The notes: generated from the sequence alone by a model not told the origin. Counted from the stretch's first letter, positions 32,591-63,947 are shown. The stretch is 64,000 bases of DNA from Gammaproteobacteria bacterium (GCA_965116495.1 OZ220696.1:4096001-4160000); one strand, 5' to 3'. Numbers and translations: made by a program.

Positions 32591-33037
32591 CTAGTACTCC
32601 GTCACCCCCAGCTTGTCCTTGATTCTGGCAATCAGTTCCTCCCGGCGCTGGTGCATGTCGATTAGCGGTTCCTTGCGCAGCTTCCCTGTTTCCTCCGCGT
32701 TATAGGGTATAAACGGGTCGGGGAGTTCGTTCCTGCTGAAATTCAACAGTATCCAGTTCATCACGTCGGCCAGTTCCTGGTCCGAGATGGGGGCGCCGGC
32801 CGCGCCCGGCACCTGTACCAGAAACTCCCTGCCGCCGGGTACGTGCAGGAAGTATCCCACAAAATTATTCATCTTCGGCACGTTGCCCTCGGAACCGGAA
32901 CCGTCTGGCAAATGGCAGCCCTGGCAGTTGAGGATGTAGTTCTGCCTGGCTAGAATTTCATTGGCCCCGGTGGTTGTGTTGATACACAACAGTAGAAGTA
33001 GACATATAAGGAGGAAGTCAATTGACTGGATTTGCAT
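32591..33037 (-). CDS. monoheme cytochrome c, exported
   Basis: CQGCH heme motif after a hydrophobic signal segment; downstream of the amine dehydrogenase small subunit. Confidence 0.88.
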   Translation of the reverse strand: MQIQSIDFLLICLLLLLCINTTTGANEILARQNYILNCQGCHLPDGSGSEGNVPKMNNFVGYFLHVPGGREFLVQVPGAAGAPISDQELADVMNWILLNFSRNELPDPFIPYNAEETGKLRKEPLIDMHQRREELIARIKDKLGVTEY

Positions 33038-33141
33038 CCTACGCTCCGTTGACGGCGCATCCATGCGCCACTACTCGGCTTGTGCCGGAACGACGGTGCA
33101 ATGTACTGGGTCGTCATTCCGGGCTTGACCCGGAATCCAGT
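33025..33141. repeat. REP-like element with insert (copy 2, 33025-33095, minus) plus a plain REP (33112-33141)
   Basis: Reverse complement matches 62417-62487; plain unit is CGTCATTCCGGGCTTGACCCGGAATCCAGT. Confidence 0.85.
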
Positions 33142-33195
33142 CAGATAACCATCGCTGGAGCCTGCCCTCGCATGTTGTAAGCGGGGGACACATTA

Positions 33196-33714
33196 TTATT
33201 TAATCGCCACGCCCAGAATGAGGTTCACGGTGCAATGATAGGCTGTGCTTTTCGTGCCGAGGCACCAGTTGTAATCGTTGGAGGTGTGGGGCCGGTAGGT
33301 GGGCCTGTCCCCTTCATTCCTGTTGCAGAAACAGTTGCCGCAGGATGTCTTGCCGCAGCAGTCGTTGTAGGAAATGATGTAGTCCTTGCCATCGCCGGGG
33401 TTCCTGCAGGTGCCGATCCAGGTGATTGTCGACATTTCCGTTCCCGGCGGGCAACTGTTGATGGTACCGCCGCAGCACGAGCACAGGTAGCCGTCTATGG
33501 CGCAGTTGCGCCAGTAATCGCAGGTTGCCGGATCTCCCGGATCCACTGCGGGCGGGCCGGGTTGTTCTGCAGTCGCGGCGCGGGCAACCGGCAACAGGGG
33601 CATGATCGAGCCGCCGGCAATCACACCGCCGAGCCCGCCGAGAAAACTCCTGCGGGAAGACGTTTTGGCTACGTTTCTTGAAAAATTTTCCGTCAGTTTG
33701 TCTATCCAGTTCAT
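33196..33714 (-). CDS. TTQ amine dehydrogenase small (beta) subunit, MauA/AauA-like
   Basis: Tat signal SRRSFL; CDYWRNCAIDG; both TTQ tryptophan contexts (TWIGTC and NDYNWC); Cys-rich. Confidence 0.93.
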   Translation of the reverse strand: MNWIDKLTENFSRNVAKTSSRRSFLGGLGGVIAGGSIMPLLPVARAATAEQPGPPAVDPGDPATCDYWRNCAIDGYLCSCCGGTINSCPPGTEMSTITWIGTCRNPGDGKDYIISYNDCCGKTSCGNCFCNRNEGDRPTYRPHTSNDYNWCLGTKSTAYHCTVNLILGVAIK

Positions 33715-33736
33715 ACTCTTCTTCTCCCGCTGATGC

Positions 33737-34897
33737 CTATTGCGAAGCGTAGACCAGCAACGGCCAGTTATGGTAGAAATCGGCAAGGGTATTGACATGC
33801 TTGCCGGACCGGGCGTCATAGACTTCCAGTTTCATTTCAATATTGGTGGTCACGATTTTCGGCGCATCACCCATGGTGATGTCGAACGCGATGGCCGGCA
33901 GCGTGAGAGGTATGCGGTTCACCCTGGTTTTACTGCCGGTGTCAAATACCCAGATCTCCGAACCGGGGTTGTCATGGGAGCCTTCCCCGCCGTTTTCGTG
34001 CATCATCACGTAAAGCCGCCCGGTGCTGTCCGTCGCCGCCAGCCAGGCGCCGCCGGGACGCCAGTTCTGTTTCCTGTCCTCCTCATTCAGCAGGCTCCAT
34101 TTCTCTCCCAGCCTGGCTGCGCTCCCGCTTAAATCTATTTCCTGTACGGTGCCGCTGAAACTGGGGAAATAACCCGTGCCGCCGATGATCGCCGGCCTTT
34201 CGAACAGGGCGTCATCGTCGACATCGAAGAACGGCTCGATCTTTTCCTGTTCGGTAACCTGGCCGTCTTCATCAAGCTGGAAACTGACCATGGAGCCATT
34301 GCCGCACAGGGAACTGAATCCACGTTTGCCGGTGGGATAGATGCCGGCGCAGGTCGGCAACGGGACGCCGTTGACCACCTCGCGTTTTTCCAGGTCGACC
34401 ACGGTGACGAAGGTGCCGGGCGTGAAGCTGTAAAACAACAGGAACTTCTCGTTGTCGATGAGCGAAATGACAAACTTGCTGACCAGTATCTCCGCCCGTT
34501 TGAGTTTGGGATCGTGGAGGATGATTTCATCGAGGGGATTCAAGGTGGCCTTGTCGTAAATGGTCAATACGTCGGTGCGGTTGCCGCGGGTGCCGCGGTC
34601 GTAATAGTGTTCGAGTACGTACATCTCGGGTTTATTCAGCGCCTGGGTAAAGGCTGCGATAAAACCGCCGTTGAAACTTCCCTTGAAAAAATCCTTGATG
34701 TCTCCGCCCTTGATATCCATTACCATGAACCGGCCCAGGGACATGTGGTCGAAGGCGATATCGTGGACGATGACCCAGTCATCCGGGTAGGGAACGGGCA
34801 GGGTCTCCACCTTGCCCTGTTCATCATTGGGTAAATCCGCGCTGTAGCTATTCACGCAACCCAGGAGCAGCGCTAATCGTAGAAATTGTTTAAACAT
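33737..34897 (-). CDS. amine dehydrogenase large (alpha) subunit, MauB/AauB-like beta-propeller
   Basis: RGTRGNRTDVLTIYD, FTP...VTVVDL, NWRPGG and SHDNPGSEIWV motifs; signal peptide. Confidence 0.9.
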   Translation of the reverse strand: MFKQFLRLALLLGCVNSYSADLPNDEQGKVETLPVPYPDDWVIVHDIAFDHMSLGRFMVMDIKGGDIKDFFKGSFNGGFIAAFTQALNKPEMYVLEHYYDRGTRGNRTDVLTIYDKATLNPLDEIILHDPKLKRAEILVSKFVISLIDNEKFLLFYSFTPGTFVTVVDLEKREVVNGVPLPTCAGIYPTGKRGFSSLCGNGSMVSFQLDEDGQVTEQEKIEPFFDVDDDALFERPAIIGGTGYFPSFSGTVQEIDLSGSAARLGEKWSLLNEEDRKQNWRPGGAWLAATDSTGRLYVMMHENGGEGSHDNPGSEIWVFDTGSKTRVNRIPLTLPAIAFDITMGDAPKIVTTNIEMKLEVYDARSGKHVNTLADFYHNWPLLVYASQ

Positions 34898-34962
34898 AGT
34901 CGGACCTCGATAATATACGGGCACACCCGATACATTATAACTGTGTCAGGTGTAAATAACGA

Positions 34963-34979
34963 GTGACTGTGACCTGCTT
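34963..34979 (+). repeat. 17-bp direct repeat, left copy
   Basis: GTGACTGTGACCTGCTT, identical at 42205-42221. Confidence 0.85.
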
Positions 34980-35230
34980 GCGCTATTTGGTCTGTCGGGA
35001 ACATCCTGTGCCAGGAACATCCCTGATTTCGCGTCAGTAAAGTGTGGGAATCAAAAAAACTTTGCCTGTATAACGAGTTACACGATCAATGAACATCACG
35101 CGATGGGTGTACAGGCAAATCTTGTAAAGATCATACCGTGTCAAGCAGCAAATACTAACGATTTATTGACCGGGCGCGGTGGTTTTGTCTGTGTGGCCGA
35201 ATTATTACGGCGGATACGGTTCAGGGACGA

Positions 35231-35962
35231 CTACTCTACTCTGATAGCAAGGAAAGCATGCAATTGTCGACTCCATTTCTTGCCAATATCCGGATAGTAA
35301 GTGCAGTACTCTATAATTTTTTGCACCAGTTCATTGGATTCGGGGGATACCAAACAGGCTCGGGCTTGAATATCGTTCAATGTCTGCATTCTGGCCCGGA
35401 CCCAGTCTATCGACAACAACTGTGTGCCCTGGCTATTCTCATTAATTGCGTTTACTGGCAGGTCAGCGACGCGAATGCGGTTGTAATCTTTTGGCACTAC
35501 TAAAAACGGACCCGACGGAGCCCTTTTATGCAGATTGTATGCCCGTATAAAAGCGGTTCCCATCACTGAGGACAAGGTCATCAATCCTTCACCCAACTTC
35601 ACCCTGTTCCCGTCGAGATCATCTGTTACCTCACTCGGATAACAACCGGTAATGTCTGAAAACTCGCCCTCTGCTATCGCCGCCGTCGCGAACATTCCGG
35701 TAGATGCCACGTGACGCATCAGCGCAATTGCGATGGCGATGGGACGTTCAAGCGTATCCTCACCAAAGTCGCTGACTATGGCAAAGCCGTCTCCCGTCTG
35801 ATGTACAAACAAACGTTCCGCTTCGTTCGGATAAACCTTTTTTCCGATTCGATATATAGCCCGCATCAGTTCCCTAAGGGACTTAAGCGCTTTACATTCA
35901 TCGCATTCCCAGACCTTACTGAATCCAAGAATATCAATATAGATGCACCAGCGTTGATTCAT
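35231..35962 (-). CDS. hypothetical protein with class III nucleotidyl-cyclase-like motifs
   Basis: YIDILGFS...TGDGFAI...AIAEG...GTAFIRAY. Confidence 0.6.
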   Translation of the reverse strand: MNQRWCIYIDILGFSKVWECDECKALKSLRELMRAIYRIGKKVYPNEAERLFVHQTGDGFAIVSDFGEDTLERPIAIAIALMRHVASTGMFATAAIAEGEFSDITGCYPSEVTDDLDGNRVKLGEGLMTLSSVMGTAFIRAYNLHKRAPSGPFLVVPKDYNRIRVADLPVNAINENSQGTQLLSIDWVRARMQTLNDIQARACLVSPESNELVQKIIEYCTYYPDIGKKWSRQLHAFLAIRVE

Positions 35963-36026
35963 GGGGACCTCTTACAGAAATACTATAGCATCCGCTTTTT
36001 TCGGGGTATGTCCCTGGCGCGTTTTG

Positions 36027-36464
36027 CTATCCCGCAACACAGAAGTCGGCTATCCATTCTCGTAACTGATGCAATCGAAAACAATTGATCTGCCGTTGCA
36101 AGGGAGCCGCTCCCTCCAGGTCGAAGGTCACAGCCAATTTACCTGTGGCATGCGCGAGTTCTATGTCCTCAACCGCTTCAACCCTCAGGTAATCGTCTGG
36201 ACGCACCCCAATCCAGTCCCGCATTTGTGCAAGAACGCGTATGCAGGCCTCCAGTCCGATTTCCCCGTAACCGACATTAATACTGACTACGTCAACACCG
36301 GCATCCCGGTAACGCTGTAATTGTGGAATAAATTCCAGGTTTTTACCCAACTCCAAGGGGAGGCACCCATGGTTATCCCATACTATGGAACGGTTGTGCA
36401 GCGCTTCTGCTTCCTGCGAAACATTCCAGTTACGTTTCCTTTCCTTTGAGTATTTCCCATTCAT
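36027..36464 (-). pseudogene. membrane dipeptidase (M19) 5' fragment
   Basis: VWDNHGCLP and TFDLEGA metal-ligand motifs; homology stops at about residue 127. Confidence 0.8.
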
Positions 36465-36470
36465 AAACTC

Positions 36471-37616
36471 TCAACCTCCAACCCAAAGCGACAGTGAGGC
36501 GCCGATAAAATTGGCAATCACATATCCCAGGATACCGCAGAGCAGGCCGGGAGTAACCAGGCTGTGCCACTTGTGGTGAGCTGCCAGCGCCGCAGCGGGC
36601 GCCGGCCCCAGAATACAGGCATTTGACGCGGTGATTAATTCAGCATAGTTGAACCGGAAGAGTTTTCCCGCCGCGATGGTGACACTCGCATGAATCAGGC
36701 AGATGAGGAAAGCATAAACCATCAAAACAGGACCGAAGGTAAACAATATTGATATATCGGCACCGGCGCCTACGACAACAAAAAACAGGTACATCAGAAA
36801 CATCCCTATCTCAAAGTCGCCGCGCAAGCCGCCCAGTTGACGCGGCAATATGTTAGCCAAAGCAACAGCAAATAACGTAATAAACAATAAAGTAAATCGG
36901 GGAACGGAAAAATACTGCGCAACGAGGGCGCTGCACCAGCAAACTCCTACCGCCAGCAGAAGCGCCAAAGCGACGCTCCCAACAGGGAGTCGAGTAGTTG
37001 GGCGGCCTGTCTCCTGACTGTGCGCCGGCCGCGACGACAACGTGACGCAGTCCGGGTGCACGGGAAATGCACGCATGAACCAGGCCGACGTAGCCATCAC
37101 TGCCAGTAAAACCAGATACGCCGTGCCGGCAATCGCATCTGAAGCAAGCGCCGCGGCCAGCAGCCCTGCATCAGTTAGTTCCAGGGTCTGCGCCACCGCG
37201 ATAAAATTCATGGAACCGCCGGTGTAGGTGGCGATGAATACCCCCAGCAGTTTATCGGCCTCCGGCCCCAGGGGCAACAGGAGTAATCCAACGATGCCCC
37301 CCAGACATGTGCCGGCAACACAAATCAAAAAAGCAACCACCAGTCGTCCGGCGCCGGCCACTACCTGCTGCAGGTTCGCTTTGAACAACAATAAGGCGAC
37401 AGCCAACGGGACAAGGTAGCTGACAATGACTCCATAGACGCGTGAAGTCTGTGGCAGCAGGCCGGTATTTGAGCATATTGCTCCTATGATCAAGGCAACC
37501 ACTGCAGCTGACAGCTTCTTTCCAAGGCTGAACCGCTCACACCATAGTGCGAATATAACAATCAGCAGTAATTGCGCAACGACCAAGACATCTGTAACGG
37601 CATCCGCCAAGGCCAC
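36471..37616 (-). CDS. DUF819 family membrane protein (putative transporter)
   Basis: Many TM helices; ATYTGGSMNF and ASNACILGP motifs. Confidence 0.85.
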   Translation of the reverse strand: MALADAVTDVLVVAQLLLIVIFALWCERFSLGKKLSAAVVALIIGAICSNTGLLPQTSRVYGVIVSYLVPLAVALLLFKANLQQVVAGAGRLVVAFLICVAGTCLGGIVGLLLLPLGPEADKLLGVFIATYTGGSMNFIAVAQTLELTDAGLLAAALASDAIAGTAYLVLLAVMATSAWFMRAFPVHPDCVTLSSRPAHSQETGRPTTRLPVGSVALALLLAVGVCWCSALVAQYFSVPRFTLLFITLFAVALANILPRQLGGLRGDFEIGMFLMYLFFVVVGAGADISILFTFGPVLMVYAFLICLIHASVTIAAGKLFRFNYAELITASNACILGPAPAAALAAHHKWHSLVTPGLLCGILGYVIANFIGASLSLWVGG

Positions 37617-37657
37617 TTGTTCGATTGCAAGAGAGTTTTGGGGCTATCCCGGAATGG

Positions 37658-40267
37658 CTAGTGTTGAAAGCGTAAATTGACTCCGAACGTGCGTGGCGCC
37701 CCAAAATAATTAAGCGCATAGCCCAAGTCTGTTACCGTATCCACACCATTAGTGCGATACAATTCATCCGTCACATTCTTGATAAACGCTTCAAGCTGGA
37801 ATTTACTGTTTGGTGGAGTAATTTTCAGGTTTAAATCCAACAGGCCAAAACCGTCTTCTTTAATCAGTTCTACATTCTTGGGATCAAAAAATACCTCGCT
37901 TTGATAAGAATAAAACGCCCCCAGTGAAACATCCCAGGATTGAGCAAGAACCACGCTGTATTCTGCTGCAATACTGGCTGTTATTTCCGGCGTGTTTTGA
38001 AATTCCCTGTCGCTTAAATCACCCAGCGTCGCATCAATAAACTCGTCAAATTCCGCATCCGTATATCCAAGCGTACCCGAAAAAAAGAAATTATCCGTGG
38101 GGCGGGCCATGACCTCAAGCTCCAGACCGGCAATGGTCGCCTCAGCCGCGTTGGCTACGGTACTGACGAAACCTGCTCCTGATGGGTCCGTTATGAATAC
38201 CTGCTGTTGAATATCGGAATAATCCATGTAAAACCCGGCAATGTTGGCTTGTAACCTGTCATCAAACCAACGGGATTTAATCCCTGCTTCAAAACTGTAT
38301 ACTTTTTCGGGGTCAAACGGCTGTGTCTCACCTTGTACATCGGCTCTTGGGTTAAACCCACCACTTTTAAAACCCTTGGAAAAACTTGCATAAGCCAGAA
38401 CAGCTTGCGTCAACTGGTAATCCAGCGCAATTTTGGGAGAAAAATTGTTAAAATCCGTTGAGATACCCGGTTCGTTGAAACTAATCGTACCGTTCGCTTG
38501 AATTCTAAGCGATTCAAGTGTTTTATCCTCCGAAGAATACCTTGCGCCCACCGTGGCTGAAAATTTGTCTGTAAAGACATACGTTGCCGAGCCAAACCCC
38601 GCAATGGTCTCCACTTCCTGTTGTACCGTCCGATCAAATCCGAAATTGACTCCTAACCCGATGTCAAATATCACGGAGATTGGCAGACGGTGTTCTTCCT
38701 TAAAATAGTAAGCCCCCAATAACCATGTCAACCGATCATTAAATGCCTCTCCCAGTAATTGAAATTCCTGGGACACCTGCCACTGTTCAAATTCGTCGGA
38801 ATCCTGGTCGAAGATAGGAAATGGAGTTCCGTCCAAATCGCTTTGGATCAGTTCCTCTATCTCACGATAGCCGGTGATTGAACGAAACTCATAATCACCT
38901 GCATCCCAGCTGATATTCAGCGCAGTACCCCATATATCAAGGGTGTGCTTGTTGGGTGAATCGTTACTGATTTTGCGTACATGGCTATCGAGGTCTGATA
39001 CTCCGGCAGGGTCGCCGGCAACATACGTCGACAGGGAACCAAAGCCACCTTCGATAAAAGGCAGATATGGCTGTGTCCTGTCCAGACCACTGATGAAAAT
39101 GCCGGGGCCATTGGATTCATCACGGGTCACATCTGCAGACCAGTTTATTTCAAGATTTTCTGCCGGCAACGCGCGTAACGCAAACCTGCCTGTCAGCACA
39201 TCTTTGTTATTCAACTCCCCATCCAGGAATGTATTCTCGGTAAAACCGCTGTTTTTCTCACCGTATAGCGCCACGCGGGCAAATAACCGGTCTTCAATAA
39301 CGGGGACCTGTCCATAAGCGGTTCCGGTTAAACTGTCGTAACTGCCTACTCCCAGTTCAGCAGAAAACTCCGTTTCGCCCGTTAGCCGTCGGGTCACGAC
39401 GCTCACGGCGCCGCCAATTGTGTTGCGGCCAAACAGCGTCCCTTGAGGGCCGCGTAATATTTCTATACGTTCGATGTCATTCAGCTTGAACAGGGCAGCG
39501 TGCTGTCGGGCCAGGTAAATACCGTCAATATAGATGCCGACGCCGGGGTCACCCAGCTCATCGCTTTGACCAATGCCACGCACGTGAACCGTTGCCTGGC
39601 TGGTAGAATCGCGTCCGTGATTGAGTTTGAAATTCGGCACAACGCGGGCAACCTCGGCCAAATCCGTCATGTTATATCTCTCTATATCCTGCACAGTCAG
39701 CGCGGTAATGGATATAGGCGTATCCTGTAACGCTGCTTCGCGTTTTTGCGCGGTGACAACAACCTCCTCTAAAACGGAGCGGCCCTTTTGCTCGGCAGCG
39801 CCTTTTCTGCCCCGCACGCCGGCTTCAGCATTTTCCGTTTGCGCAAGCAATATTCTGTCTGAATCCTTTAATCCACTGTCTTGGCGGTATTTAAGATTAT
39901 TGTTCTCAAGCCGTGGTTGACGTCTGTTGCTGTTTGAGTCCGTAATTGTAACCGTGCCGGTTCCCGTGTATTGAAACTGGAGACTGCTATTCCTGAGCAG
40001 ATTGCGAATCGCATTACGCCGGGTAATTTTTCCCTTTACGCCATCAGTGTGGATGCCCTCTATATCAGCGGCAGCCACAAGCACCTGTACCTGAGCTTGA
40101 TCAGAAAATTCAATTAATGCTGTGCTTAACGTTTGTGATTCAATATGAAATTTGATTCGTTCATCCAACTCCGCGCTCGACAAACAATTCATTGTAGCGC
40201 TCAGTAGAAGCATCCCGGTTGACCAGGCCATTTTTCTGATAAATTGCTTTCCGTTGTGGGCCGACAT
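37658..40267 (-). CDS. TonB-dependent receptor/transducer with N-terminal STN signalling domain
   Basis: FHIESQTLSTALIEFSDQA STN domain; EEVVVTAQKRE; IEILRGPQGTLFGRN. Confidence 0.95.
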   Translation of the reverse strand: MSAHNGKQFIRKMAWSTGMLLLSATMNCLSSAELDERIKFHIESQTLSTALIEFSDQAQVQVLVAAADIEGIHTDGVKGKITRRNAIRNLLRNSSLQFQYTGTGTVTITDSNSNRRQPRLENNNLKYRQDSGLKDSDRILLAQTENAEAGVRGRKGAAEQKGRSVLEEVVVTAQKREAALQDTPISITALTVQDIERYNMTDLAEVARVVPNFKLNHGRDSTSQATVHVRGIGQSDELGDPGVGIYIDGIYLARQHAALFKLNDIERIEILRGPQGTLFGRNTIGGAVSVVTRRLTGETEFSAELGVGSYDSLTGTAYGQVPVIEDRLFARVALYGEKNSGFTENTFLDGELNNKDVLTGRFALRALPAENLEINWSADVTRDESNGPGIFISGLDRTQPYLPFIEGGFGSLSTYVAGDPAGVSDLDSHVRKISNDSPNKHTLDIWGTALNISWDAGDYEFRSITGYREIEELIQSDLDGTPFPIFDQDSDEFEQWQVSQEFQLLGEAFNDRLTWLLGAYYFKEEHRLPISVIFDIGLGVNFGFDRTVQQEVETIAGFGSATYVFTDKFSATVGARYSSEDKTLESLRIQANGTISFNEPGISTDFNNFSPKIALDYQLTQAVLAYASFSKGFKSGGFNPRADVQGETQPFDPEKVYSFEAGIKSRWFDDRLQANIAGFYMDYSDIQQQVFITDPSGAGFVSTVANAAEATIAGLELEVMARPTDNFFFSGTLGYTDAEFDEFIDATLGDLSDREFQNTPEITASIAAEYSVVLAQSWDVSLGAFYSYQSEVFFDPKNVELIKEDGFGLLDLNLKITPPNSKFQLEAFIKNVTDELYRTNGVDTVTDLGYALNYFGAPRTFGVNLRFQH

Positions 40268-40318
40268 GTTCGTTACCTCATTCTGTAGTTACGGGACGGT
40301 TACCGCTTACAGGTGAAT

Positions 40319-40345
40319 AACGAACAACCGGGGTATTATTGAAAT
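40319..40345 (-). promoter_or_regulatory. putative ECF-sigma promoter of the receptor
   Basis: Minus strand ATTTCAAT-N13-TTCGTT, identical in boxes and spacing to 42149-42175. Confidence 0.65.
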
Positions 40346-40373
40346 ATTTTTTATGGGGTCTGAAGTTTAGGGG

Positions 40374-41525: not shown

Positions 41526-41544
41526 AGAATACCCTCATACTGCA

Positions 41545-42096: not shown

Positions 42097-42148
42097 TGAT
42101 CCAGCCTCACGATATTGATGGATAAAAACCGTTCAAGTCCGGGTAGTA

Positions 42149-42175
42149 AACGAATAAGTGTAAATAAATTGAAAT
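42149..42175 (-). promoter_or_regulatory. putative ECF-sigma promoter of the fecI-like gene
   Basis: Minus strand ATTTCAAT-N13-TTCGTT. Confidence 0.65.
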
Positions 42176-42204
42176 CTCGAATGACACAAGAGATACCATC
42201 ACTC

Positions 42205-42221
42205 GTGACTGTGACCTGCTT
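42205..42221 (+). repeat. 17-bp direct repeat, right copy
   Basis: GTGACTGTGACCTGCTT. Confidence 0.85.
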
Positions 42222-44781: not shown

Positions 44782-44831
44782 ACGGCAACTCTTGCTGGTA
44801 GATACGATGACGACAAGTGAACTGGTGGGTA

Positions 44832-46696: not shown

Positions 46697-46721
46697 TTTA
46701 TTTCTCCATTACTGTTATATG

Positions 46722-55336: not shown

Positions 55337-56431
55337 TTATACGCATTCGGCGTCGGATAACTTTTTAAGGTGCCGGCGCATGGCGACGCCGGGCCGGTCC
55401 GCGGGCACGTCTATCTCGTAGAAGTCCGGCGTCCGGTCGGTATCCTGCATCCGGTTGATATGTTCGATGGCAAACACGTCTTCGCTGAACGCCGTCTGGT
55501 TGGCTTTCAGCATGAACGCGCCCATTTCCCCATCATCGATACAGAAATTACGGCACTGGGCATAGTAGTAATTGGTGGACGTATTCGTCTCCGGGGTGAT
55601 CAACTGGGCCACCTTGACCAGGGGTTGCAGGTTTGCCATTTTTTCCGGCTTGGCCAGGTTTTTCAGTATCCCCGTGTTGACATGCAGGCCGGGGGTGACG
55701 AACAGGGAACCGGAGCTGCGCAGGGCTTTTTCGTTCTCCCAGCCCAGGGGCTTTGAATAAATGGGCGGCAACACGCATTCCACGCGGCGCCATACCTCGA
55801 AATGCTCGTCCTCAACCGTCGCCTCGATGGGTGCCCGGGCATACTCCGGGGTGCCGAAGGTCTTGTCGTGCAAGAAGCTCAGGTGGGACAGGTCCAGCAG
55901 GTTCTCGTGCAGGTGCACGTAACTGCCCTTGATGTTCAGAAAGCCGATGTTTACCGCCCAGTCCGGGTGGTCGAAGTATTCCTGGTGCGGCAACAGGGCT
56001 TCATCGGCCAGGTCCGGGTCCCCCGGCCAGATCCAGATAAAGGGTTTTTTCTCGATAACCGGGAATGCGCGTACGCCGATATTTTGCGGGGGTCTGTCCT
56101 GGGACGGTACCGCTACACAGCGGCCGGTACTGTTGTACCTGAACCCGTGGTAACCGCATTCCAGGATGTCGCCGTGCAGTTTACCTTCGGACAGAGGGAA
56201 AGAGCGGTGGCAGCAGCGGTTCTGCAAGGCTACCGGGGTAGCGTCTTCCCTGCGAAATAACACGGTGCTGATGCCGAGATACCGGCGGGAAAACAGTGTG
56301 CGCCCGATCTCGTCACTGCGTGCGGCCACGTACCAGGCGTTACGGATCAGCGGCGTGTCGCGATCGGCCATGTTCGCCGCCGAGATGGAGGCGAGTTTTT
56401 GCTGTCTTTCAACGGATGCCCGTGATGACAC
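55337..56431 (-). CDS. Rieske non-heme iron oxygenase alpha subunit (VanA/DdmC-like)
   Basis: CCHR...CGYHG Rieske motif; ENLLDLSHLSFLH and ED mononuclear Fe site. Confidence 0.92.
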   Translation of the reverse strand: MSSRASVERQQKLASISAANMADRDTPLIRNAWYVAARSDEIGRTLFSRRYLGISTVLFRREDATPVALQNRCCHRSFPLSEGKLHGDILECGYHGFRYNSTGRCVAVPSQDRPPQNIGVRAFPVIEKKPFIWIWPGDPDLADEALLPHQEYFDHPDWAVNIGFLNIKGSYVHLHENLLDLSHLSFLHDKTFGTPEYARAPIEATVEDEHFEVWRRVECVLPPIYSKPLGWENEKALRSSGSLFVTPGLHVNTGILKNLAKPEKMANLQPLVKVAQLITPETNTSTNYYYAQCRNFCIDDGEMGAFMLKANQTAFSEDVFAIEHINRMQDTDRTPDFYEIDVPADRPGVAMRRHLKKLSDAECV

Positions 56432-56486
56432 TTGGAAGTTGTTCTCCTGTAGTCAGGCGCGTTCTTGCTTTATTATAGACAACTTT

Positions 56487-56516
56487 GCCGGGGACGGCAT
56501 TTATCCCGTCCCCGGC
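56487..56516. repeat. GGGGACGG-type REP palindrome
   Basis: GCCGGGGACGG-N8-CCGTCCCCGGC. Confidence 0.75.
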
Positions 56517-56553
56517 GCTGTTTGTCTCCCATACTGTTGTTAAGAACGAACTC

Positions 56554-58083
56554 ATGCACAAAAACCGGAACCTGTTTTCATGTTACCTGCGAGGTAAGGA
56601 GAATAATCGTGACAGGGCCGCCGTTTATGCCGGCGACGGGAGATGCAGCTATGCCGACTTGGCGAATGGTTCCGCGCGCTATGCCAATACCCTGACGGCC
56701 ATGGGTGTCAGGCCGGGAGACAGGGTCTGCGCCTATATCGATAAATCTATCTATAACATTTTTCTGTACCTGGCCTGCCTGCGCGCGGGGATTGTCTACC
56801 AGCCGCTGAATCCCGCATTTAAACCTGCCGAGGTTGATTATTACCTGGCAGATGCGGGTCCGGCTATGGTGGTCTGCGCAACGGTGAACGAAGACTGGGT
56901 AAGGGCTGCGGCAAAGCACGCCGGCATCGATCATGTGCTGACCCTGGATCGGGACGGGACCGGTACCATGGCTGCCGCTGCCGGAAAGGCGGGAAGCGAA
57001 TTTACTACCCGCAGGTGTGACGGATCCGAACTTGCCTGCCTGCTGTACTCATCCGGCACTACGGGCAAACCCAAGGGTATAAAACTCAGCCACGACAACC
57101 TCGCCGCCAACGTCAGGACCCTGGTTGACCTGTGGGGATTCACGAATGATGACGTGTTGATACATGCCTTGCCGCTGTTCCATGTTCACGGCCTGTTCGT
57201 AGCACTGGGTTGTGTCCTGACTGCCGGCGCTTCTCTCCACCTGCTGGAAAAGTTTGACGCAGATGAAATAACCTGCCTGTTGCCTGAGGCCACGGTATTG
57301 ATGGGGGTGCCCACATTTTACACGCGCTTGCTGCAATCTCCCGGCTTGTCCAGGGAAGCCTGCAGTGCCATGCGCCTGTTCATCTCCGGTTCGGCTCCGC
57401 TGCATGAGAATACGTTTAATCAATTCAAACAAACTACCGGTCATACCATCCTGGAACGCTACGGCGCATCGGAGACCGGTATGAGCACCTCGAACCCGCT
57501 GCATGGGGAACGCAGGGCCGGGATGGTCGGGATGCCGCTGCCGGACGTCCTGGTCAAAATCGTGGATGATGGTGGTAACGAAGTGACAGATACCGCTATT
57601 GGTGAGTTACTGGTGAAGGGACCTAACGTCTTTTCCGGTTACTGGAACCTGGATGACGTGAACAGGACCGCTTTCACCGAGGATGGTTATTACCGTACCG
57701 GCGATCTGGGAGAACGGGATCCCGATGGTTACATCCGCATAGTGGGTCGCGCCAGGGACATGATCATCAGCGGGGGGGAGAATATCTACCCGAAAGAGAT
57801 TGAACTATGCCTGGATCGCATCGAAGGCATCAGTGAGTCGTCCGTCATCGGTCTTGAAGATACGGACCTGGGTGAAAGGGTAGTGGCCGTCCTGGTGACG
57901 GAGCCGGATTGCCGTTTGGATGAAGCGGGAATTATTGCCGGACTGAAAACGCAACTCGCCGGGTTCAAGGTTCCCAGACAAATTTGTTTCGTGGAGGAAC
58001 TGCCGCGTAATACAATGGGCAAAGTACAAAAGAATAAATTAAGGGAAACCTGGAAGCAGAACCACAAAAACGAGCAGGAGTAA
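56554..58083 (+). CDS. matB: malonyl-CoA synthetase-like acyl-CoA ligase
   Basis: YSSGTTGKPKG, HALPLFHVHGLFV, MRLFISGSAPL, ILERYG, LPRNTMGKVQK. Confidence 0.8.
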   Translation: MHKNRNLFSCYLRGKENNRDRAAVYAGDGRCSYADLANGSARYANTLTAMGVRPGDRVCAYIDKSIYNIFLYLACLRAGIVYQPLNPAFKPAEVDYYLADAGPAMVVCATVNEDWVRAAAKHAGIDHVLTLDRDGTGTMAAAAGKAGSEFTTRRCDGSELACLLYSSGTTGKPKGIKLSHDNLAANVRTLVDLWGFTNDDVLIHALPLFHVHGLFVALGCVLTAGASLHLLEKFDADEITCLLPEATVLMGVPTFYTRLLQSPGLSREACSAMRLFISGSAPLHENTFNQFKQTTGHTILERYGASETGMSTSNPLHGERRAGMVGMPLPDVLVKIVDDGGNEVTDTAIGELLVKGPNVFSGYWNLDDVNRTAFTEDGYYRTGDLGERDPDGYIRIVGRARDMIISGGENIYPKEIELCLDRIEGISESSVIGLEDTDLGERVVAVLVTEPDCRLDEAGIIAGLKTQLAGFKVPRQICFVEELPRNTMGKVQKNKLRETWKQNHKNEQE

Positions 58084-58091
58084 TACCGGCT

Positions 58092-58415
58092 TTGGAACTG
58101 AAGGAGCAACTCAGGCGGTTGTCCGCGTCAGAGAAATACCGCGCGCATGTGGATAAGCGCAGGCGGGTGACTTACCTGTTAACGGCCATCGCTGTTTTTC
58201 AATACAGCCTTTACTTCTTTGCCGTGGCCTGGGCGGCGGGACCGGCAGGGACGGCCTGGCCGGCCGGTAGCGCCGTCAGTGTGATCATTTGGCTCACCGT
58301 GCTGGTTATATTGCTGAGCATCGTCATTTCAGCAGGATATATATGGTGGACCGCCCGTTTCCATGACCCGGAAAGAGAAGCGGTCATGAGAGAACTTGGA
58401 CTGCGGGATGAGTAG
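58092..58415 (+). CDS. DUF485 (YjcH-like) small membrane partner of ActP
   Basis: Two TM helices; overlaps the actP start. Confidence 0.75.
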   Translation: MELKEQLRRLSASEKYRAHVDKRRRVTYLLTAIAVFQYSLYFFAVAWAAGPAGTAWPAGSAVSVIIWLTVLVILLSIVISAGYIWWTARFHDPEREAVMRELGLRDE

Positions 58416-60066
58416 AGTAGTTCCACCGCTTGTTTTCCTTGTATCGATGAATCCGGTATTTGCCCGGGCCGACACGCTGGCCGGCGCCGGTACCGGACAA
58501 CCCCTGAACGTGGCCGCGATCATCACGTTTTTCCTGTTTGTCTTCAGTACCCTGCTGATTACCTGGTGGGCGGCCCGGCACACCCGTTCCCGCAAGGAGT
58601 TTTATGTTGCCGGCGGCGGTATACCCGCGTGGCAGAACGGGATTGCCATTTCCGGTGACTTCATGTCGGCGGCGACCTTTCTGGGACTGACGAGCCTGGT
58701 ATTTTTTACCGGCACGGACGGGTTGATGCTGGCAGTCGGCGCAGTCGCCAGCTGGCCGGTTATCCTGTTCCTGGTCGCCGAGAGGTTGCGTAATCTCGGC
58801 CGTTATACGTTTATCGACGTCATCTCATTTCGCCTTGATCAACGACCGATCACGCGGGTTGCAGCCCTGGGGTCTCTTGCTACGGTAATCTTTTATCTTA
58901 TCTCGCAGCTTGTGGGCGCGGGAAAACTGATCCAGTTGCTGTTCGGCCTGGATTACATCTGGGCCGTGAGCGGTATCAGCATCCTGATGATCGCCTATGT
59001 GACTTTCGGCGGCATGCTGGCCACGACCTGGGTGCAGATTATCAAGGCTTTCCTGCTGATAGTCGGCGGCACAATTATTACCCTGTTGATGTTGCAGCAT
59101 TACAGCTATGACCTGGATGCGGTGTTTCACAGCGCGGTGTTGATTCACCCGAGGGGTTGGGATCTTGTCGCCCCGGGTGGCTGGCTGGACGATCCGGTAT
59201 CGGTGCTCTCCCTGGGATTGACGGCCCTGCTCGGCTTCATCGGACTGCCGCATATACTGATGCGTATCTTTACCGTGAAGGACGCAAAAACTGCAAGAAA
59301 ATCGGCATTTTATGCCATTTCAATCATCGGCTATTTCAACCTCCTGATGCTTGTCGTCGGGTTCGGAGCGGTGTCGCTCATCATGTTCAACCCGGACTAC
59401 CAGAGTGCCGCCGGCGCCCTGACAGGAGGACGGAACATGGTGGTGCTGCACACGGCCCACTTCCTGGGGGGCGACATTTTGCTGGGGTTTGTCTCCGCCG
59501 TTGCCTTCGCCACGATCCTCGCAGTCGTCTCGGGGTTGACCATCTCCGCGGCAGCCACCATTGCCCATGACCTGTATGCGAAATCGATTAAACAGGGCAG
59601 GGCGTCGGAAAAATCGGAATTACTGGTCTCGCGCTGTGCCGTGATCGGCATCGGTACACTGGCAGTCCTGTTCGGTCTCGCATTCGAACATCATAACGTC
59701 ATCTTTATTACCAATATGGCCCTGGCGGTTGCCGGCAGCGCTAACGCGCCGATATTATTGCTGTCCATGTACTGGCGGGGGTTGACGACCCGCGGCGCCA
59801 TCTACGGTTGCCTGGCCGGCCTGGTCTCTTCGGTCTGTCTGATTATCCTGGGCCCGCAGGTATGGGTGGACGTGATCGGTATGGAAAAACCGTTGTTTCC
59901 CTATGTTTACCCCACCATCATCTCGGCTCCACTGGCGTTTGCCATGGCCTGGCTGTTGTCACGTACGGATAACAGCGCCCGGGCGGACAAGGAGAGGGCC
60001 GCGTTTACCGGACAATATATCCGTTCGGAAACCGGTATCGGTGCGGCAGAAGCAGCAGGCCACTGA
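58408..60066 (+). CDS. actP: cation/acetate (monocarboxylate) symporter, SSS family
   Basis: NGIAISGDFMSAATFLG, GLPHILMR and AVAFATILAVVSGL motifs. Confidence 0.88.
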   Translation: MSRVVPPLVFLVSMNPVFARADTLAGAGTGQPLNVAAIITFFLFVFSTLLITWWAARHTRSRKEFYVAGGGIPAWQNGIAISGDFMSAATFLGLTSLVFFTGTDGLMLAVGAVASWPVILFLVAERLRNLGRYTFIDVISFRLDQRPITRVAALGSLATVIFYLISQLVGAGKLIQLLFGLDYIWAVSGISILMIAYVTFGGMLATTWVQIIKAFLLIVGGTIITLLMLQHYSYDLDAVFHSAVLIHPRGWDLVAPGGWLDDPVSVLSLGLTALLGFIGLPHILMRIFTVKDAKTARKSAFYAISIIGYFNLLMLVVGFGAVSLIMFNPDYQSAAGALTGGRNMVVLHTAHFLGGDILLGFVSAVAFATILAVVSGLTISAAATIAHDLYAKSIKQGRASEKSELLVSRCAVIGIGTLAVLFGLAFEHHNVIFITNMALAVAGSANAPILLLSMYWRGLTTRGAIYGCLAGLVSSVCLIILGPQVWVDVIGMEKPLFPYVYPTIISAPLAFAMAWLLSRTDNSARADKERAAFTGQYIRSETGIGAAEAAGH

Positions 60067-60207: not shown

Positions 60208-62409
60208 ATGATTTTCTTCTCCAACAAAAACCGGCCCTTTCACTACGGTCCCTATCCCCTCGAGAGATTGCCCCGGGATGAATTACTCATCGAGTTTGAA
60301 CGGCAAAGGGGGCAAAAAGCCCGGCCCGCTGCAGGCAACGGCGCGACTTCAAACTATGCCGCCGCGCTGGAGAAATATCACGCTATCTTCAAACAATTCT
60401 GTGAAGGAGCGGTGGCGCCGGCCAGGGCGCCCGTGCCTGATGACCTCGACAGGCGCTCGATTGACGTCAAGGGAGCCGGATATTTTCTTGATGCCGGCCA
60501 GATAGGTATATGCAGGTTGACCGCGTCATGCTGGTACCTGGACTCGACGTCGAAGGATCATAGTCACGGGATAGTCGTACTGGCCGAATACAGCCGCCTG
60601 CCGGAAGCTGACAACCCGGCCCGGCGCTGGCTCGAGGGGTCCATCCATGTCACTGCACAGATGCGCGCTTTTGAAATTGCGGTGGGCATTGCCAACCATA
60701 TACGTGCGATGGGGTTCGATGCGGCAGCCCATGATGATCGGAACGACCAAATTGATATCGACCGGCTGACCGTGCTGGCCGGCCTGGGGGTCCGGGATAA
60801 CGGAGTGGTCGTCAATCCCTACTTGGACACCGACTTCTCGGTCGCTGTGGTGACCACGAATTATGCACTGGCAACGGACAAACCGCTGAAGGCCAAGGCG
60901 AAAAACGGCCGGAACCTGGCGTATTGGCTGGGTATCGGCGGCGCCACGTCCGGCCTGGAGAGATGGCGCCGCGCCAACCGGCAGACCCATCTCAGCAACT
61001 ACCCGATGGAACAGGTAAAGCGCGTGGACAGGCCCACAACACTGATCCTGGACGATGAGGTGCCGCGGGTTCCGAAACGGGCAGGTTTCTTTGAGCGGGC
61101 AATTCACGGCGACCTGGATAAGAAAGCGCAGGTGGAACGCCAGCGTTTTTCCTTCAAACATCCGTTTGCCGCCGCCATGCTGAAACAAATACGCGGCATG
61201 GTGCCGTACCAGGACGGGCTCGTGGCAGAGGCACAGGCAAGCGGCACGAACGATCCGGTGGCCAACACCAGGGCACTCAAGTCATTGTCCTACGCCCTGG
61301 GGTCGGAGATCACCGGGATTTGCGAGATACCGGAGTATACCTGGTATTCACACAAGGAAGACGGCTCGGAGATCAAGCCGTACCATAAATACGCCGTGGT
61401 GTGTCTGATCGACCAGGGCTATGACACCATGGAAGGCGCTTCGGGTGACGATTTCATTTCCGGCGCGCAATCCATGCGCGCCTACATGCGCGGGGCCTTG
61501 ATCGCCGGCATCATGGCCGAGCATTTGCGTTCGCTCGGCCATTCTGCCCGGCCGCAGACCAACGCGGACTCCCACGTGTTGCACATTCCCCTGGTGATGT
61601 GGGCAGGGCTGGGGGAACTCAGCCGTATCGGTGAACTGGTGCTCAACCCGTTTATCGGCCCACGTTTCAAGACCGTCGTCATGACCACCGATCTGCCCCT
61701 GGTCCCCGATAAGCCTGTTGACTTCGGCCTGCAGTATTTCTGCTCCAACTGCCTGAAGTGCGCGCGTGAATGCCCCTGCGATGCCATCCCCTTCGGCGAC
61801 AAGGTGATGTTCAACGGCTACGAGATGTGGAAGCCGGACGTAGAGCGTTGCACGCGTTATCGCCTGACCAACCAACGCGGGCTGGCCTGTGGCCGCTGCA
61901 TGAAGACCTGCCCGCTGAACAAGGTCATCAGCTGGGACGGCCCGCTTGCCACCCAGGCGGCCAGCTGGTGTGGCGTTAATGCTTTCTGGCTGAAACCCTT
62001 GCTGGTGCCGATAGCGGTAAAACTCGATGATATGCTGGGCCACGGCATACGTAATCCTGCCAAGAAATGGTGGCTGGACCTGGAGATAGTGGACGGCGTA
62101 TGCGTGCACCCGCGTAAAGGCGTGAACCAGCGTGACCTGGACGTGGATCGCAAGATTGACGTGCAGAAACATAAAGTCGCGTATTACCACGCCGACATGA
62201 TGCCGCCGCCGAACAGTTCAGGCATTGCCATGATGGTGAAAAGAAAAGACGGGATTGCCGCCGCGGTCAAAGTCGAATCAGTCGAGCAGGCATTGGTCCG
62301 TAAAGCCAAAGGCGGCCCCGCTCCGGAGCACTACATCCCGACGCCTCCCATGGATACCAGCGCATCAGATAAGGAAGATGTGACAGGATTCAATCCGTAT
62401 CATAACTGA
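60208..62409 (+). CDS. rdhA: catabolic (NpRdhA-like) B12-dependent reductive dehalogenase, no fused reductase
   Basis: No Tat signal; duplicated N-terminal B12-domain-like region; SMRAY, ELSRIGE and GPRFK; two 4Fe-4S motifs CSNCLKCARECP and C...CGRCMKTCP. Confidence 0.88.
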   Translation: MIFFSNKNRPFHYGPYPLERLPRDELLIEFERQRGQKARPAAGNGATSNYAAALEKYHAIFKQFCEGAVAPARAPVPDDLDRRSIDVKGAGYFLDAGQIGICRLTASCWYLDSTSKDHSHGIVVLAEYSRLPEADNPARRWLEGSIHVTAQMRAFEIAVGIANHIRAMGFDAAAHDDRNDQIDIDRLTVLAGLGVRDNGVVVNPYLDTDFSVAVVTTNYALATDKPLKAKAKNGRNLAYWLGIGGATSGLERWRRANRQTHLSNYPMEQVKRVDRPTTLILDDEVPRVPKRAGFFERAIHGDLDKKAQVERQRFSFKHPFAAAMLKQIRGMVPYQDGLVAEAQASGTNDPVANTRALKSLSYALGSEITGICEIPEYTWYSHKEDGSEIKPYHKYAVVCLIDQGYDTMEGASGDDFISGAQSMRAYMRGALIAGIMAEHLRSLGHSARPQTNADSHVLHIPLVMWAGLGELSRIGELVLNPFIGPRFKTVVMTTDLPLVPDKPVDFGLQYFCSNCLKCARECPCDAIPFGDKVMFNGYEMWKPDVERCTRYRLTNQRGLACGRCMKTCPLNKVISWDGPLATQAASWCGVNAFWLKPLLVPIAVKLDDMLGHGIRNPAKKWWLDLEIVDGVCVHPRKGVNQRDLDVDRKIDVQKHKVAYYHADMMPPPNSSGIAMMVKRKDGIAAAVKVESVEQALVRKAKGGPAPEHYIPTPPMDTSASDKEDVTGFNPYHN

Positions 62410-62416
62410 CCAAGTC

Positions 62417-62574
62417 CGTCATTCCGGCGCAGGCCGAGTAGTGGCGCATGGATGCGCCGTCAACGGAGCGTAGGATGCAAATCCAGTAAAACAATGTGTC
62501 GCCTCCGACGACTCCCGGCAGTACTGGGTTCCGGTCCCGACTTTTGCCGGGATAAACTTCTGCAGCAATGACGG
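62417..62574. repeat. REP-like element with insert (copy 3, 62417-62487) plus degenerate inverted partner
   Basis: CGTCATTCCGGCGCAGGCCG-[insert]-AATCCAGT ... ACTGGGTTCC...AATGACGG. Confidence 0.85.
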
Positions 62575-62584
62575 ATTGGTAAGA

Positions 62585-62628
62585 AATGATACAAAAAATT
62601 TGACATTCACGAATATTTTTGTATCATT
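62585..62628 (+). promoter_or_regulatory. PaaX-type operator enclosing the paaA sigma70 promoter
   Basis: AATGATACAAAAA-N18-TTTTTGTATCATT (GATACA-N26-TGTATC); TTGACA-N16-TATCAT lies inside. Confidence 0.75.
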
Positions 62629-62658
62629 ATATCAATGGTGATGTACAGGTAGATACAG

Positions 62659-63609
62659 ATGACCGATTCAACTACGCTACCGGAAATATTTCAGGGGCGG
62701 ATAGATGCCGAGGAGAAAATCGAGCCCCGGGACTGGATGCCGGACGCCTACCGGCAAACCCTGGTCAGGCAGATTTCGCAACATGCCCATTCCGAGATAG
62801 TCGGCCAGTTGCCGGAAGGGAACTGGATCTCGCGGGCGCCGTCGCTGCGGCGCAAGGCGATCCTGCTGGCCAAGGTACAGGATGAAGCCGGCCATGGCCT
62901 GTATTTATACAGCGCGGCGGAGACTCTGGGTATCTCCAGGGAGCAGATGCTTGAGCAACTGCACTCCGGTAAGGCAAAGTATTCCAGCATTTTCAATTAT
63001 CCGACCCTGACCTGGGCGGATATAGGCGCAATCGGTTGGCTGGTGGATTCGGCTGCCATCATCAACCAGATTCCATTGTGCCGTTGTTCTTACGGGCCGT
63101 ATGCCCGGGCCATGGTGCGGATATGCAAGGAAGAGAGCTTTCACCAGCGCCAGGGATATGAACTGCTGATGACGCTGTGCCAGGGATCCGAGGAGCAAAA
63201 GGCAATGGCGCAGGATGCGATAAACCGGTGGTGGTGGCCGTCGGTGATGATGTTCGGACCCAGTGATGCGAATTCCAGACATTCCGCCCAGTCCATGCAA
63301 TGGAAAATCAAGCGTAACAGCAACGATGAACTGCGCCAGAAATTCGTGGATCAATCCGTTCCTCAGGCCGAGTACCTGGGCCTGACGCTGCCCGACCCGG
63401 ACCTGAAGTGGAATGAAGCGCGCGGGCATTACGATTTCGGGGAAATAGACTGGGACGAATTCTACCAGGTCGTCGGCGGCAACGGTCCCTGTAACCACGA
63501 ACGCATCAGCGCACGCATCAAGGCCCACGAAGACGGCGCCTGGGTGCGGGAGGCGGCACTGGCCTATGCGGACAAGCAACGGCAGCGGGCCCGGAAGGCT
63601 GCTGCCTGA
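62659..63609 (+). CDS. paaA: 1,2-phenylacetyl-CoA epoxidase subunit A
   Basis: [21 protein letters not shown] and [10 protein letters not shown] di-iron motifs. Confidence 0.98.
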
Positions 63610-63653
63610 GATGCCGCCTTGCAAAATTGTCTGACAGCCGTAAGGAATAGATT

Positions 63654-63947
63654 ATGACGGATAAAACCGGGCGTTTGCCCCTATGGGAAGTATTCATCCG
63701 CAGCAAGCGGGGGCTGGACCACAAACATGCCGGCAGCATTCATGCAGCCGATGGTGAGCAGGCCCTGCAATACGCCCGGGACACCTATACCCGCCGCAAT
63801 GAGGGCTGCAGTATCTGGGTAGTGAAGTCGGCGGATATCATAGCCAGCCAGTTCGAGGACAACGACAGTCTTTTTGATCCTGCGATCGACAAGATGATCT
63901 ATCGCCATCCGACCTTCTACGACGTGCCTGAGGACCTCAAACTGTGA
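63654..63947 (+). CDS. paaB: 1,2-phenylacetyl-CoA epoxidase subunit B
   Basis: LWEVFIRSKRGLDHKH, ARDTYTRRNEG and YRHPTFY motifs. Confidence 0.96.
   Translation: MTDKTGRLPLWEVFIRSKRGLDHKHAGSIHAADGEQALQYARDTYTRRNEGCSIWVVKSADIIASQFEDNDSLFDPAIDKMIYRHPTFYDVPEDLKL

Follow-up and report, generated by a model that had tools for sequence, protein, structure and literature searches.

A conserved gene neighbourhood in a gammaproteobacterium and its candidate role in funnelling aromatic amines, amides and halogenated hydroxyphenylacetates

In a 64,000-nucleotide stretch of a Gammaproteobacteria bacterium genome (GCA_965116495.1, OZ220696.1:4096001-4160000; G000:C1:4096001-4160000 in our numbering and referred to here as the window), an amine dehydrogenase (aau) operon, a Rieske oxygenase gene and a gene for a catabolic reductive dehalogenase (RdhA) lie between two blocks of phenylacetate (paa) genes. 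The genome is a single contig of 4.34 Mb. An original prediction, made from the window alone, had read this region as a pathway for halogenated, N-acylated aromatic amines that feeds the paa route, and all the genes that it named are present where it had placed them. The paa genes, the amine dehydrogenase and the conserved members between them are as follows:

14765..17261, minus strand: paaI and paaZ, left end of the cluster (over NCBIfam cut-off)
17432-17439: predicted PaaX-type operator half-site upstream of paaK
17500..18801, plus strand: paaK (TIGR02155 over cut-off)
32591..33064, minus strand: monoheme cytochrome c, to which the amine dehydrogenase probably passes its electrons (CxxCH motif; after the small subunit in 18/18 genus loci)
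33196..33714, minus strand: small subunit of a tryptophan tryptophylquinone (TTQ) amine dehydrogenase, similar to aromatic amine dehydrogenase (AADH; twin-arginine signal, both Trp and the Asp motif)
33737..34897, minus strand: TTQ amine dehydrogenase large subunit, AADH-like (170 bits to AADH vs 104 to methylamine dehydrogenase, MADH)
42354..43451, plus strand: HdaH-type (class II) zinc deacylase, hdac (HDAC family; catalytic motifs kept, E about 1e-100)
44817..46313, plus strand: Nudix/metallo-beta-lactamase (MBL) fusion, conserved core (<=32 kb from rdhA in 15/16 genus and 5/16 other-genus genomes)
46388..48293, minus strand: CrtO/PYROXD2-like flavoprotein and EthD, conserved core (flavoprotein near rdhA in 14/16 genus and 5/16 other-genus genomes)
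49875..51068, minus strand: nitrilase-superfamily amidase, candidate arylacetamide amidase (Glu-Lys-Cys triad; best structure match formamidase)
55337..56431, minus strand: VanA/DdmC-like Rieske oxygenase, predicted demethylase (VanA_C domain; best structure match dicamba O-demethylase)
56485..60066, plus strand: MatB-type CoA ligase, DUF485 protein and ActP-like monocarboxylate symporter (actP adjoins rdhA in 15/16 genus and 3/16 other-genus loci)
60208..62409, plus strand: catabolic RdhA of the NpRdhA type (733 aa, no fused reductase; 647 bits to 4RAS, full-length match)
62587..62626, plus strand: palindrome TGATAC-N28-GTATCA, predicted PaaX operator over paaA's own promoter (sole match in the window)
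62659..63947, plus strand: paaA and paaB (paaCDE and paaX lie beyond the window)

The amine dehydrogenase had been predicted to be of the aromatic type, and structure-search scores agree. With the full mature frame of the small subunit as query, the score was 159 bits to AADH and 133 bits to P. denitrificans-type MADH; the 167 bits to the full-length MADH precursor is a score raised by the signal included in it. The enzyme also scores under both MADH cut-offs and is, as judged from these comparisons, AADH-like rather than MADH-like. The conserved tryptophans and aspartate of the small subunit correspond to the TTQ and catalytic residues. In Alcaligenes faecalis, AADH uses azurin, whereas the gene order here is large subunit, small subunit, cytochrome c. 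The A. faecalis enzyme (PDB 2AGL, 2H3X) is the closest solved relative of both the large and the mature small subunit, and shares the TTQ Trp and Asp motif. For maturation, the genome holds a single mauE-mauD pair, at 2.703 Mb, which would serve three aau operons. One relative, G018, carries a partial second copy of the cytochrome c and small subunit genes 11 kb from the first (L043, G018:C2:4037756-4050255).

RdhA matches NpRdhA (PDB 4RAS, 6ZXX) and JtRdhA over its full length, is predicted to be cytoplasmic, has no Tat signal and contains the Fe-S cysteine motif. It keeps S422, Y426, K488 and R552 as well as the F290/F291/F310/M423 pocket (NpRdhA numbering), and the first four residues are kept in 92/92 homologous RdhA loci. 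In NpRdhA, the phenol hydroxyl is reported to be bound via S422, K488 and R552, the S422/Y426/K488/R552 set binding the phenol and donating the proton (PMC7565698). The related catabolic JtRdhA is described as debrominating 3-bromo-4-hydroxyphenylacetate at 99% of its best rate and as accepting iodophenols (PMC10463259). By these residues, the predicted ortho-halophenol active site of an NpRdhA-type enzyme, as originally proposed, is retained. A419, which lines the second-halogen pocket, is Gly in 91/92 loci; Gly419 would widen the pocket and may allow it to fit a second bromine or iodine. RdhA further differs from NpRdhA by Arg at K307 and Ser at P311, by the lack of a fused reductase and, in the window, of NpRdhA's neighbouring ferredoxin and ferredoxin reductase genes, and by its amine and arylacetate gene neighbours. 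Both cobS and cobT are present in the genome.

The Rieske enzyme keeps the Rieske motif, the mononuclear iron triad and the VanA_C domain, and is about one-third identical to dicamba O-demethylase relatives; the VanA/DdmC group also includes reactions other than O-demethylation. In other genera of the family, 7/8 carriers of the Rieske gene have it divergent from rdhA at a distance of up to 2.3 kb, and they fall into both subclades of the family RdhAs in a quick tree. Because RdhA requires a free ortho-phenol, there would be a reason for an O-demethylase to adjoin it. Outside the family, a metagenome scan gave eight Rieske loci; among five that were checked, only the close orthologue (81%) adjoins rdhA. 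The pair is also present in L113, labelled as a groundwater bin, so that its chemistry need not be host-specific.

Two further RdhA loci were noted in the genome. At G000:C1:1462000-1482000 (L143, L144), a second catabolic RdhA, 42% identical, lies directly upstream of an HpaB-family monooxygenase; the locus also holds an intradiol dioxygenase and a meta-cleavage set and looks like a halophenol degradation locus. The third RdhA (G000:C1:2726881-2738282, L146) lies behind three glutathione S-transferases and is followed by a MetE-like gene, and a paralogous VanA-like Rieske gene is found 7 kb from it (2.735 Mb). MetE-like genes near rdhA also occur in L112, L113 and L057.

Gene order was compared in a genus set (up to 40 kb at the amine dehydrogenase locus of 17 genomes and the entire contig of G017, 18 in all) and in 16 family genomes outside the genus that carry an rdhA orthologue; orthologues of the symporter, amidohydrolase, Rieske and aldehyde:ferredoxin oxidoreductase (AOR) genes were sought in 34 genomes. 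Within the genus, aauH lies 3-26 kb from rdhA in 16/16 genomes with both in the stretch (16/17 assessable; G013 has no rdhA at the locus, and the G008 contig ends). Among the 16 rdhA stretches, hdac, the Nudix-MBL fusion and actP are each present in 15, the flavoprotein in 14, the amidase and EthD in 13 and the Rieske gene in 11. The amidase is 91-96% identical within the genus and 77-86% in other genera. Genus members thus share one gene order, parts of which are met again in other genera; this argues against the caveat of the original prediction that the genes could be an unrelated mosaic. The Nudix-MBL fusion, EthD, the CrtO/PYROXD2-like flavoprotein, the MatB-type ligase, DUF485 and the ActP-like symporter are conserved members that were missing from its list.

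In other genera, aau and rdhA lie within 22 kb in four genomes, 70 kb apart in one, unlinked in three and on separate short contigs in seven; aau was not found in one. The most complete arrangement, in G062, extends over about 62 kb: paaXEDCBA-paaI-paaZ-paaK-cytc-aau-nudixMBL-ethD-flavoprotein-nitrilase-actP-rdhA-hpa-decarboxylase-FAD monooxygenase-AOR, the decarboxylase being of the pyridoxal phosphate type. Much of this order is retained in G120 and G109. In G073, paa, aau and hpa genes, the decarboxylase, AOR, hmgA and hppD occur together, with rdhA 70 kb from aau; in G024 and G028, AOR is found 4-6 kb from rdhA, with homogentisate genes close by, and in G031 rdhA is beside hpaGEDF. Overall, hpa, hmg, AOR, decarboxylase or monooxygenase genes lie within 10 kb of rdhA in 7/16 other-genus genomes. 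For paa genes, the count within 30 kb is 3/16, and paaA is next to rdhA in 0/16. Co-occurrence of aau and rdhA across 80 family genomes (both in 19, rdhA only in two, aau only in three, neither in 56) was left out of the support because the carriers are kin.

The exits of the proposed route are encoded in the window and elsewhere in the genome. In many relatives, paaK adjoins the cytochrome c gene of the amine dehydrogenase operon, so that a single cluster has one paa block at either end. paaK, paaABCDE, paaZ, paaI and paaX are present; the best candidates for paaG and paaH (208 against a cut-off of 345, and 395 against 669) lie away from the cluster, and no control genome passed either cut-off. 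For hydroxylated products, hpaD, hpaE and hpaH score over cut-off at 3.50 Mb, as do hmgA, maiA and hppD at 1.75-1.78 Mb. Since RdhA keeps the phenol-binding residues, its product would be 4-hydroxyphenylacetate. In Burkholderia cenocepacia, paaA and paaE mutants are reported to grow normally on 4-hydroxyphenylacetate, which is said not to induce paa there, and some PaaK enzymes are reported to take this acid in vitro (PMC3417372). A single route of all products into paa, as originally proposed for the debrominated products, is thus unlikely: the RdhA chemistry would give a 4-hydroxy acid, and in other genera rdhA lies by hpa or hmg genes and not beside paaA.

The palindrome is found upstream of paaA in 17/18 genomes and, with up to two mismatches, upstream of paaK in 15/19, but upstream of aauH in 0/21, of the Rieske gene in 0/13 and of rdhA in 0/21. 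We take it to be a PaaX operator from its location and from the known consensus. Its presence before paaA and paaK but not before rdhA makes membership of rdhA in a paa operon unlikely. Upper routes need not be under PaaX, and the absent operator would exclude only an rdhA-paa operon. When 12 sets of upstream sequences were searched for conserved 8-mers, the paa operator and no other shared signal emerged. Separately, among 54 rdhA loci outside the family, one, from an alphaproteobacterial record (L114:6375-12200), is immediately preceded by paaABCDE. Two gene sets at G000:C1:578318-589399 and 3432159-3436354 look like soluble di-iron monooxygenases of the toluene/phenol and alkene type, as judged from N-termini and reductase hits.

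The window contains no stand-alone aldehyde dehydrogenase for the step from aldehyde to acid, as the original prediction had remarked; the family is matched there by the PaaZ domain only. A tungsten-type AOR gene is located at 1.746 Mb, next to a decarboxylase of the aromatic amino-acid decarboxylase group, and has an orthologue in 30/34 genomes. A tungsten AOR is reported to have been purified from phenylalanine-grown Aromatoleum (PMC6365974). In G028, an operon resembling a tungstate ABC transporter, under the Tup cut-offs, lies between paaA and paaZ. As this tungsten-type AOR belongs to the block in other genera, it is the likely enzyme for the aldehyde step that the window lacks.

Other genes were noted around these loci. 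Beside the amine cluster, relatives pair a class-III aminotransferase with a kinase of the APH family (G000:C1:1743108-1744478 (L141), L056:84-2442, L180:17595-19729); the two resemble the hydroxylysine kinase/phospho-lyase pair, which would fit collagen use. A second AOR-family gene lies at G000:C1:3483853-3495993 (L212) with an amidase, 4-hydroxybenzoyl-CoA reductase-like subunits below cut-off and a UbiD decarboxylase, adjoining the hpa genes and a tungstate-transporter-like operon.

From the established gene identities, active-site residues, linkage and presence of exit genes, we propose candidate substrates for an inherited aromatic-catabolism cluster. We lean slightly towards reading it as a branched funnel with two exits, by which arylethylamines, arylacetamides and O-methylated or halogenated hydroxyphenylacetates would be converted to phenylacetate-type acids. 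The periplasmic TTQ amine dehydrogenase would convert amines of the phenethylamine or tyramine type to aldehydes and pass electrons to the adjoining cytochrome c, while the deacylase and amidases would open amides imported via interchangeable transporters. The aldehydes would be oxidised by the tungsten-type AOR, encoded at 1.746 Mb here and in the block in other genera. The Rieske enzyme would strip O-methyl groups and so free the phenol needed by RdhA, which in turn would remove ortho bromine or iodine. Unsubstituted phenylacetate would then enter paa in the window, and 4-hydroxyphenylacetate the hpa (3.50 Mb) or homogentisate (1.75 Mb) route.

Each of these enzyme families is known, and so are amine-to-acid funnels into paa and hpa. 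In E. coli tynA-feaB-paa and Pseudomonas pea, aromatic amines are converted via aldehydes to acids, phenethylamine leading to paa and tyramine to hpa; the present cluster differs by its TTQ dehydrogenase, the likely tungsten AOR and the predicted demethylation and debromination. In Comamonas sp. 7D-2, with its bromoxynil (bhb) cluster, and in the DdmC route for dicamba, a nitrilase or O-demethylase unmasks the substrate before dehalogenation and ring cleavage. The likeness is the unmasking enzyme ahead of dehalogenation; those routes act on herbicides and benzoates, whereas the present cluster leads to paa, hpa and hmg and its RdhA is not self-sufficient. Such a funnel combined with a Rieske demethylase, a catabolic RdhA and an AOR of the tungsten type appears to be new: a literature search, mostly of openly accessible papers, found no description of such a cluster.

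Catabolic RdhAs are common, but few have a known natural substrate, and assays of those studied used herbicide-like benzoates. The cluster names natural candidates, namely halo-4-hydroxy- and halo-4-methoxyphenylacetates and their amides, together with a candidate upstream demethylase. Reported sponge metabolites include 2-(3,5-dibromo-4-hydroxyphenyl)acetamide and methoxy relatives (PMC3229238), and halogenated tyrosines are described from sponge skeletons (PMC5334614, PMC4145324). If the funnel operates as proposed, it would add an aerobic sink for marine organohalogens to the anaerobic debrominators already described for their cycle (PMC12203066). A more specific version, which we offer only tentatively and regard as possible rather than probable, is a host-associated lineage with an oxygen-tolerant, B12-dependent route for host bromo- and iodotyrosine fragments, running from amidase or amine dehydrogenase via tungsten AOR, Rieske enzyme and RdhA to hpa or homogentisate; if true, it would give a widespread RdhA clade a natural substrate.

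Several observations weigh against the branched funnel. No 4-hydroxyphenylacetate hydroxylase scores over cut-off in the genome (HpaB-like genes reach 673 against 885 and 225 against 480), and for the FAD monooxygenase and a P450 beside hmgA the match does not go beyond the family. Likewise, no MauG scores over cut-off; the lone MauG-family gene of the genome is MbnH-like and below both cut-offs. The AOR reaches only 147 bits against AOR_Aa and is thus distant, and an alternative candidate for the aldehyde step, a StyD-like dehydrogenase at 32.5 kb, scores 598 against a cut-off of 850. Neither a ferredoxin nor a VanB-type reductase gene was found beside rdhA or the Rieske gene, and none of six FNR-type genes adjoins them, the nearest being paaE. 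No Rieske orthologue was found in 13/34 genomes searched. In G073, G092, G095 and G097, none of the shared neighbours lies by rdhA in the 4-20 kb read around it. In the outside-family set of 54 rdhA loci, aau, hdac or amidase genes occur within 10 kb in 0/54, a distant Rieske gene in two and paaABCDE in one. With three aau operons, three full RdhAs and 15 Rieske hits, the genome also holds so many aromatic genes that they could meet by chance. Finally, background synteny is high. In a control of 20 windows of 20 kb, chosen arbitrarily in five genomes of other genera, with a pair counted as kept when its orthologues lie up to 50 kb apart in G000, 198/237 pairs closer than 2.5 kb are kept; at 10-20 kb, the figure is 26/145, compared with 4/8 for aau-rdhA, a small and non-independent sample.

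The last point bears on the strongest alternative, by which the genes were gathered in the ancestor of the clade and are held by ordinary synteny without shared flux, each acting on unrelated substrates. Blocks of 15-18 kb are kept in 3/20 arbitrary control windows, linkage is limited to one clade, the site often takes unrelated inserts, and aau and rdhA are far apart in G028 and G076. The Rieske-rdhA count is not above the short-range background. However, the neighbours of rdhA vary between genera and yet are repeatedly phenylacetate, hydroxyphenylacetate or tyrosine genes, the Rieske-rdhA pair outlasts these changes in both family RdhA subclades, and a second Rieske gene lies near the RdhA paralogue at 2.735 Mb. 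Function is argued here from a pair and a chemical theme that persist while the flanks change, which is a judgement and not a statistic. We regard inheritance without shared flux as unlikely, if still a serious contender.

A second alternative accepts the same funnel but gives the HDAC-family enzyme no part in small-molecule turnover: as a protein-lysine deacetylase, it would reactivate PaaK and MatB, the CoA ligases encoded nearby. The deacylase scores nearly equally against HDAH/PA3774 (342 bits), which are lysine deacetylases, dimethoate hydrolase (DmhA, 336) and propanil hydrolase (PrpH, 333), and by these scores cannot be placed with either the lysine deacetylases or the small-molecule amidases. 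It shares its catalytic motifs with HdaH sub-cluster 1b (HDAH, PA3774, DmhA, PrpH), but its distance to members acting on proteins and to those acting on small molecules is much the same, so that no substrate is transferable. Zinc deacetylases acting on acyl-CoA ligases include R. palustris LdaA. BsAcuC is reported as another precedent, whereas sub-cluster 1b is described as including true small-molecule amidases (PMC11532494). In G017, hdac directly precedes the MatB-type ligase and rdhA. In genus relatives, however, hdac is followed by an uptake system in 10/17 and by an amidase-signature enzyme in 8/17, and it follows a TonB receptor and an amidase in G062 and G082. A purely regulatory deacylase appears improbable to us.

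Least probable, and in our view very doubtful, is the linear route of the original prediction, from symporter uptake via deacylation, deamination, demethylation and debromination of host bromotyramines into paa: all its enzyme classes do lie between both paa blocks, PaaK activity on 4-hydroxyphenylacetate has the in vitro precedent given above, and the below-cut-off 4-hydroxybenzoyl-CoA reductase-like operon at 3.488 Mb could in principle remove the hydroxyl, but the symporter is linked in 0/11 carriers and the amidohydrolase in 1/4, rdhA does not abut paaA in other genera, paaA has its own predicted operator, the B. cenocepacia mutants point the other way, and the Rieske-rdhA pair of the presumed groundwater bin speaks against a host origin.

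The remaining features of the region are variable or inserted:

18802..32590: island of insertion sequence (IS), defence-like and reverse transcriptase genes, not pathway; splits paaK from the amine dehydrogenase and is short or different in relatives
34963..42221: inserted cassette, not pathway, bounded by a 17-bp repeat (unknown ORF, truncated M19 dipeptidase, DUF819, TonB receptor, FecR, ECF sigma)
43474..44781, plus strand: SNF-family sodium symporter, strain-level occupant of a variable transporter slot
48564..49700, plus strand: Kelch-repeat protein, variable (4/16 genus loci)
51234..53624, minus strand: TonB-dependent receptor, variable (6/16 genus and 2/16 other-genus loci)
54073..55239, minus strand: exported amidohydrolase, rare insert (N-terminal hydrophobic stretch; in 4/34 genomes, at this place elsewhere only in G022)

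Neither the symporter nor the amidohydrolase, both named in the original prediction, is retained as a pathway member. Symporter orthologues occur in 11/34 genomes, none in this block, and follow 4-hydroxybenzoyl-CoA reductase-like genes in 2/3 contexts examined. The slot behind hdac is filled by a tripartite ATP-independent periplasmic (TRAP) transporter in 6/17 genus relatives, by a TonB receptor in 4/17 and by an amidase-signature enzyme in 8/17.

The cassette is an insertion, because aauH and hdac are divergent near-neighbours in relatives (divergent in 17/18 genus relatives); without it, the amine dehydrogenase operon is divergent from hdac here too, as had been proposed. The aauH-hdac spacer measures 73-426 bp in 14/18 genus relatives and 1.4-1.8 kb, with different inserts, in the remaining four. 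Excision between the exact 17-bp direct repeats (34963-34979 and 42205-42221, 7,242 bp apart) would leave a spacer of 214 bp; the G001 spacer has 225 bp and can be aligned to the right-hand flank in the window. The 7.26-kb cassette has a GC content of 48% (flanks 56-57%), and 1.5 kb of it is 81% identical to G000:C1:1339151-1340639. The 17-mer has only these two copies in the whole genome, also at one mismatch. Some exact 17-mer repeat arises in 24/100 Markov simulations of the window, and the 17-mer is absent from the aauH-hdac spacers of 18 relatives at up to four mismatches (0/18); the repeat is therefore weak proof alone. No integrase was found in the cassette, and a search for an empty-site copy of the 17-mer in the 18 relatives, as expected for a target-site duplication, found none. 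In one RNA run (share 0.06, contigs), scattered pieces of 150-500 bp fell on cluster genes and the island alike and are therefore uninformative on expression.

For the flavoprotein and the amidase, atlas searches returned family names only. A CrtO-like flavoprotein is again paired with a nitrilase-family amidase and a TonB receptor at G000:C1:4014066-4019566 (L215), and two further copies flank the StyD-like aldehyde dehydrogenase at G000:C1:32511-37206 (L214). These repeated pairings suggest an amide or amine role for the CrtO-like flavoprotein family. In G013, several near-identical copies of a 198-aa ORF are inserted behind hdac (L052:18061-19944, L053:211-3666). Positions 9219-14706 and 18837-31981 of the window contain Schlafen/AlbA, GmrSD, HsdR_N, Fic and PIN genes, a frameshifted IS110, IS1634, IS256 and a truncated group II intron reverse transcriptase. 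REP-like intergenic repeats or hairpins, 87-95% alike, are located at 414-482, 33022-33096 and 62416-62490, at 2245-2273 and 63960-63991, and at 60074-60146.

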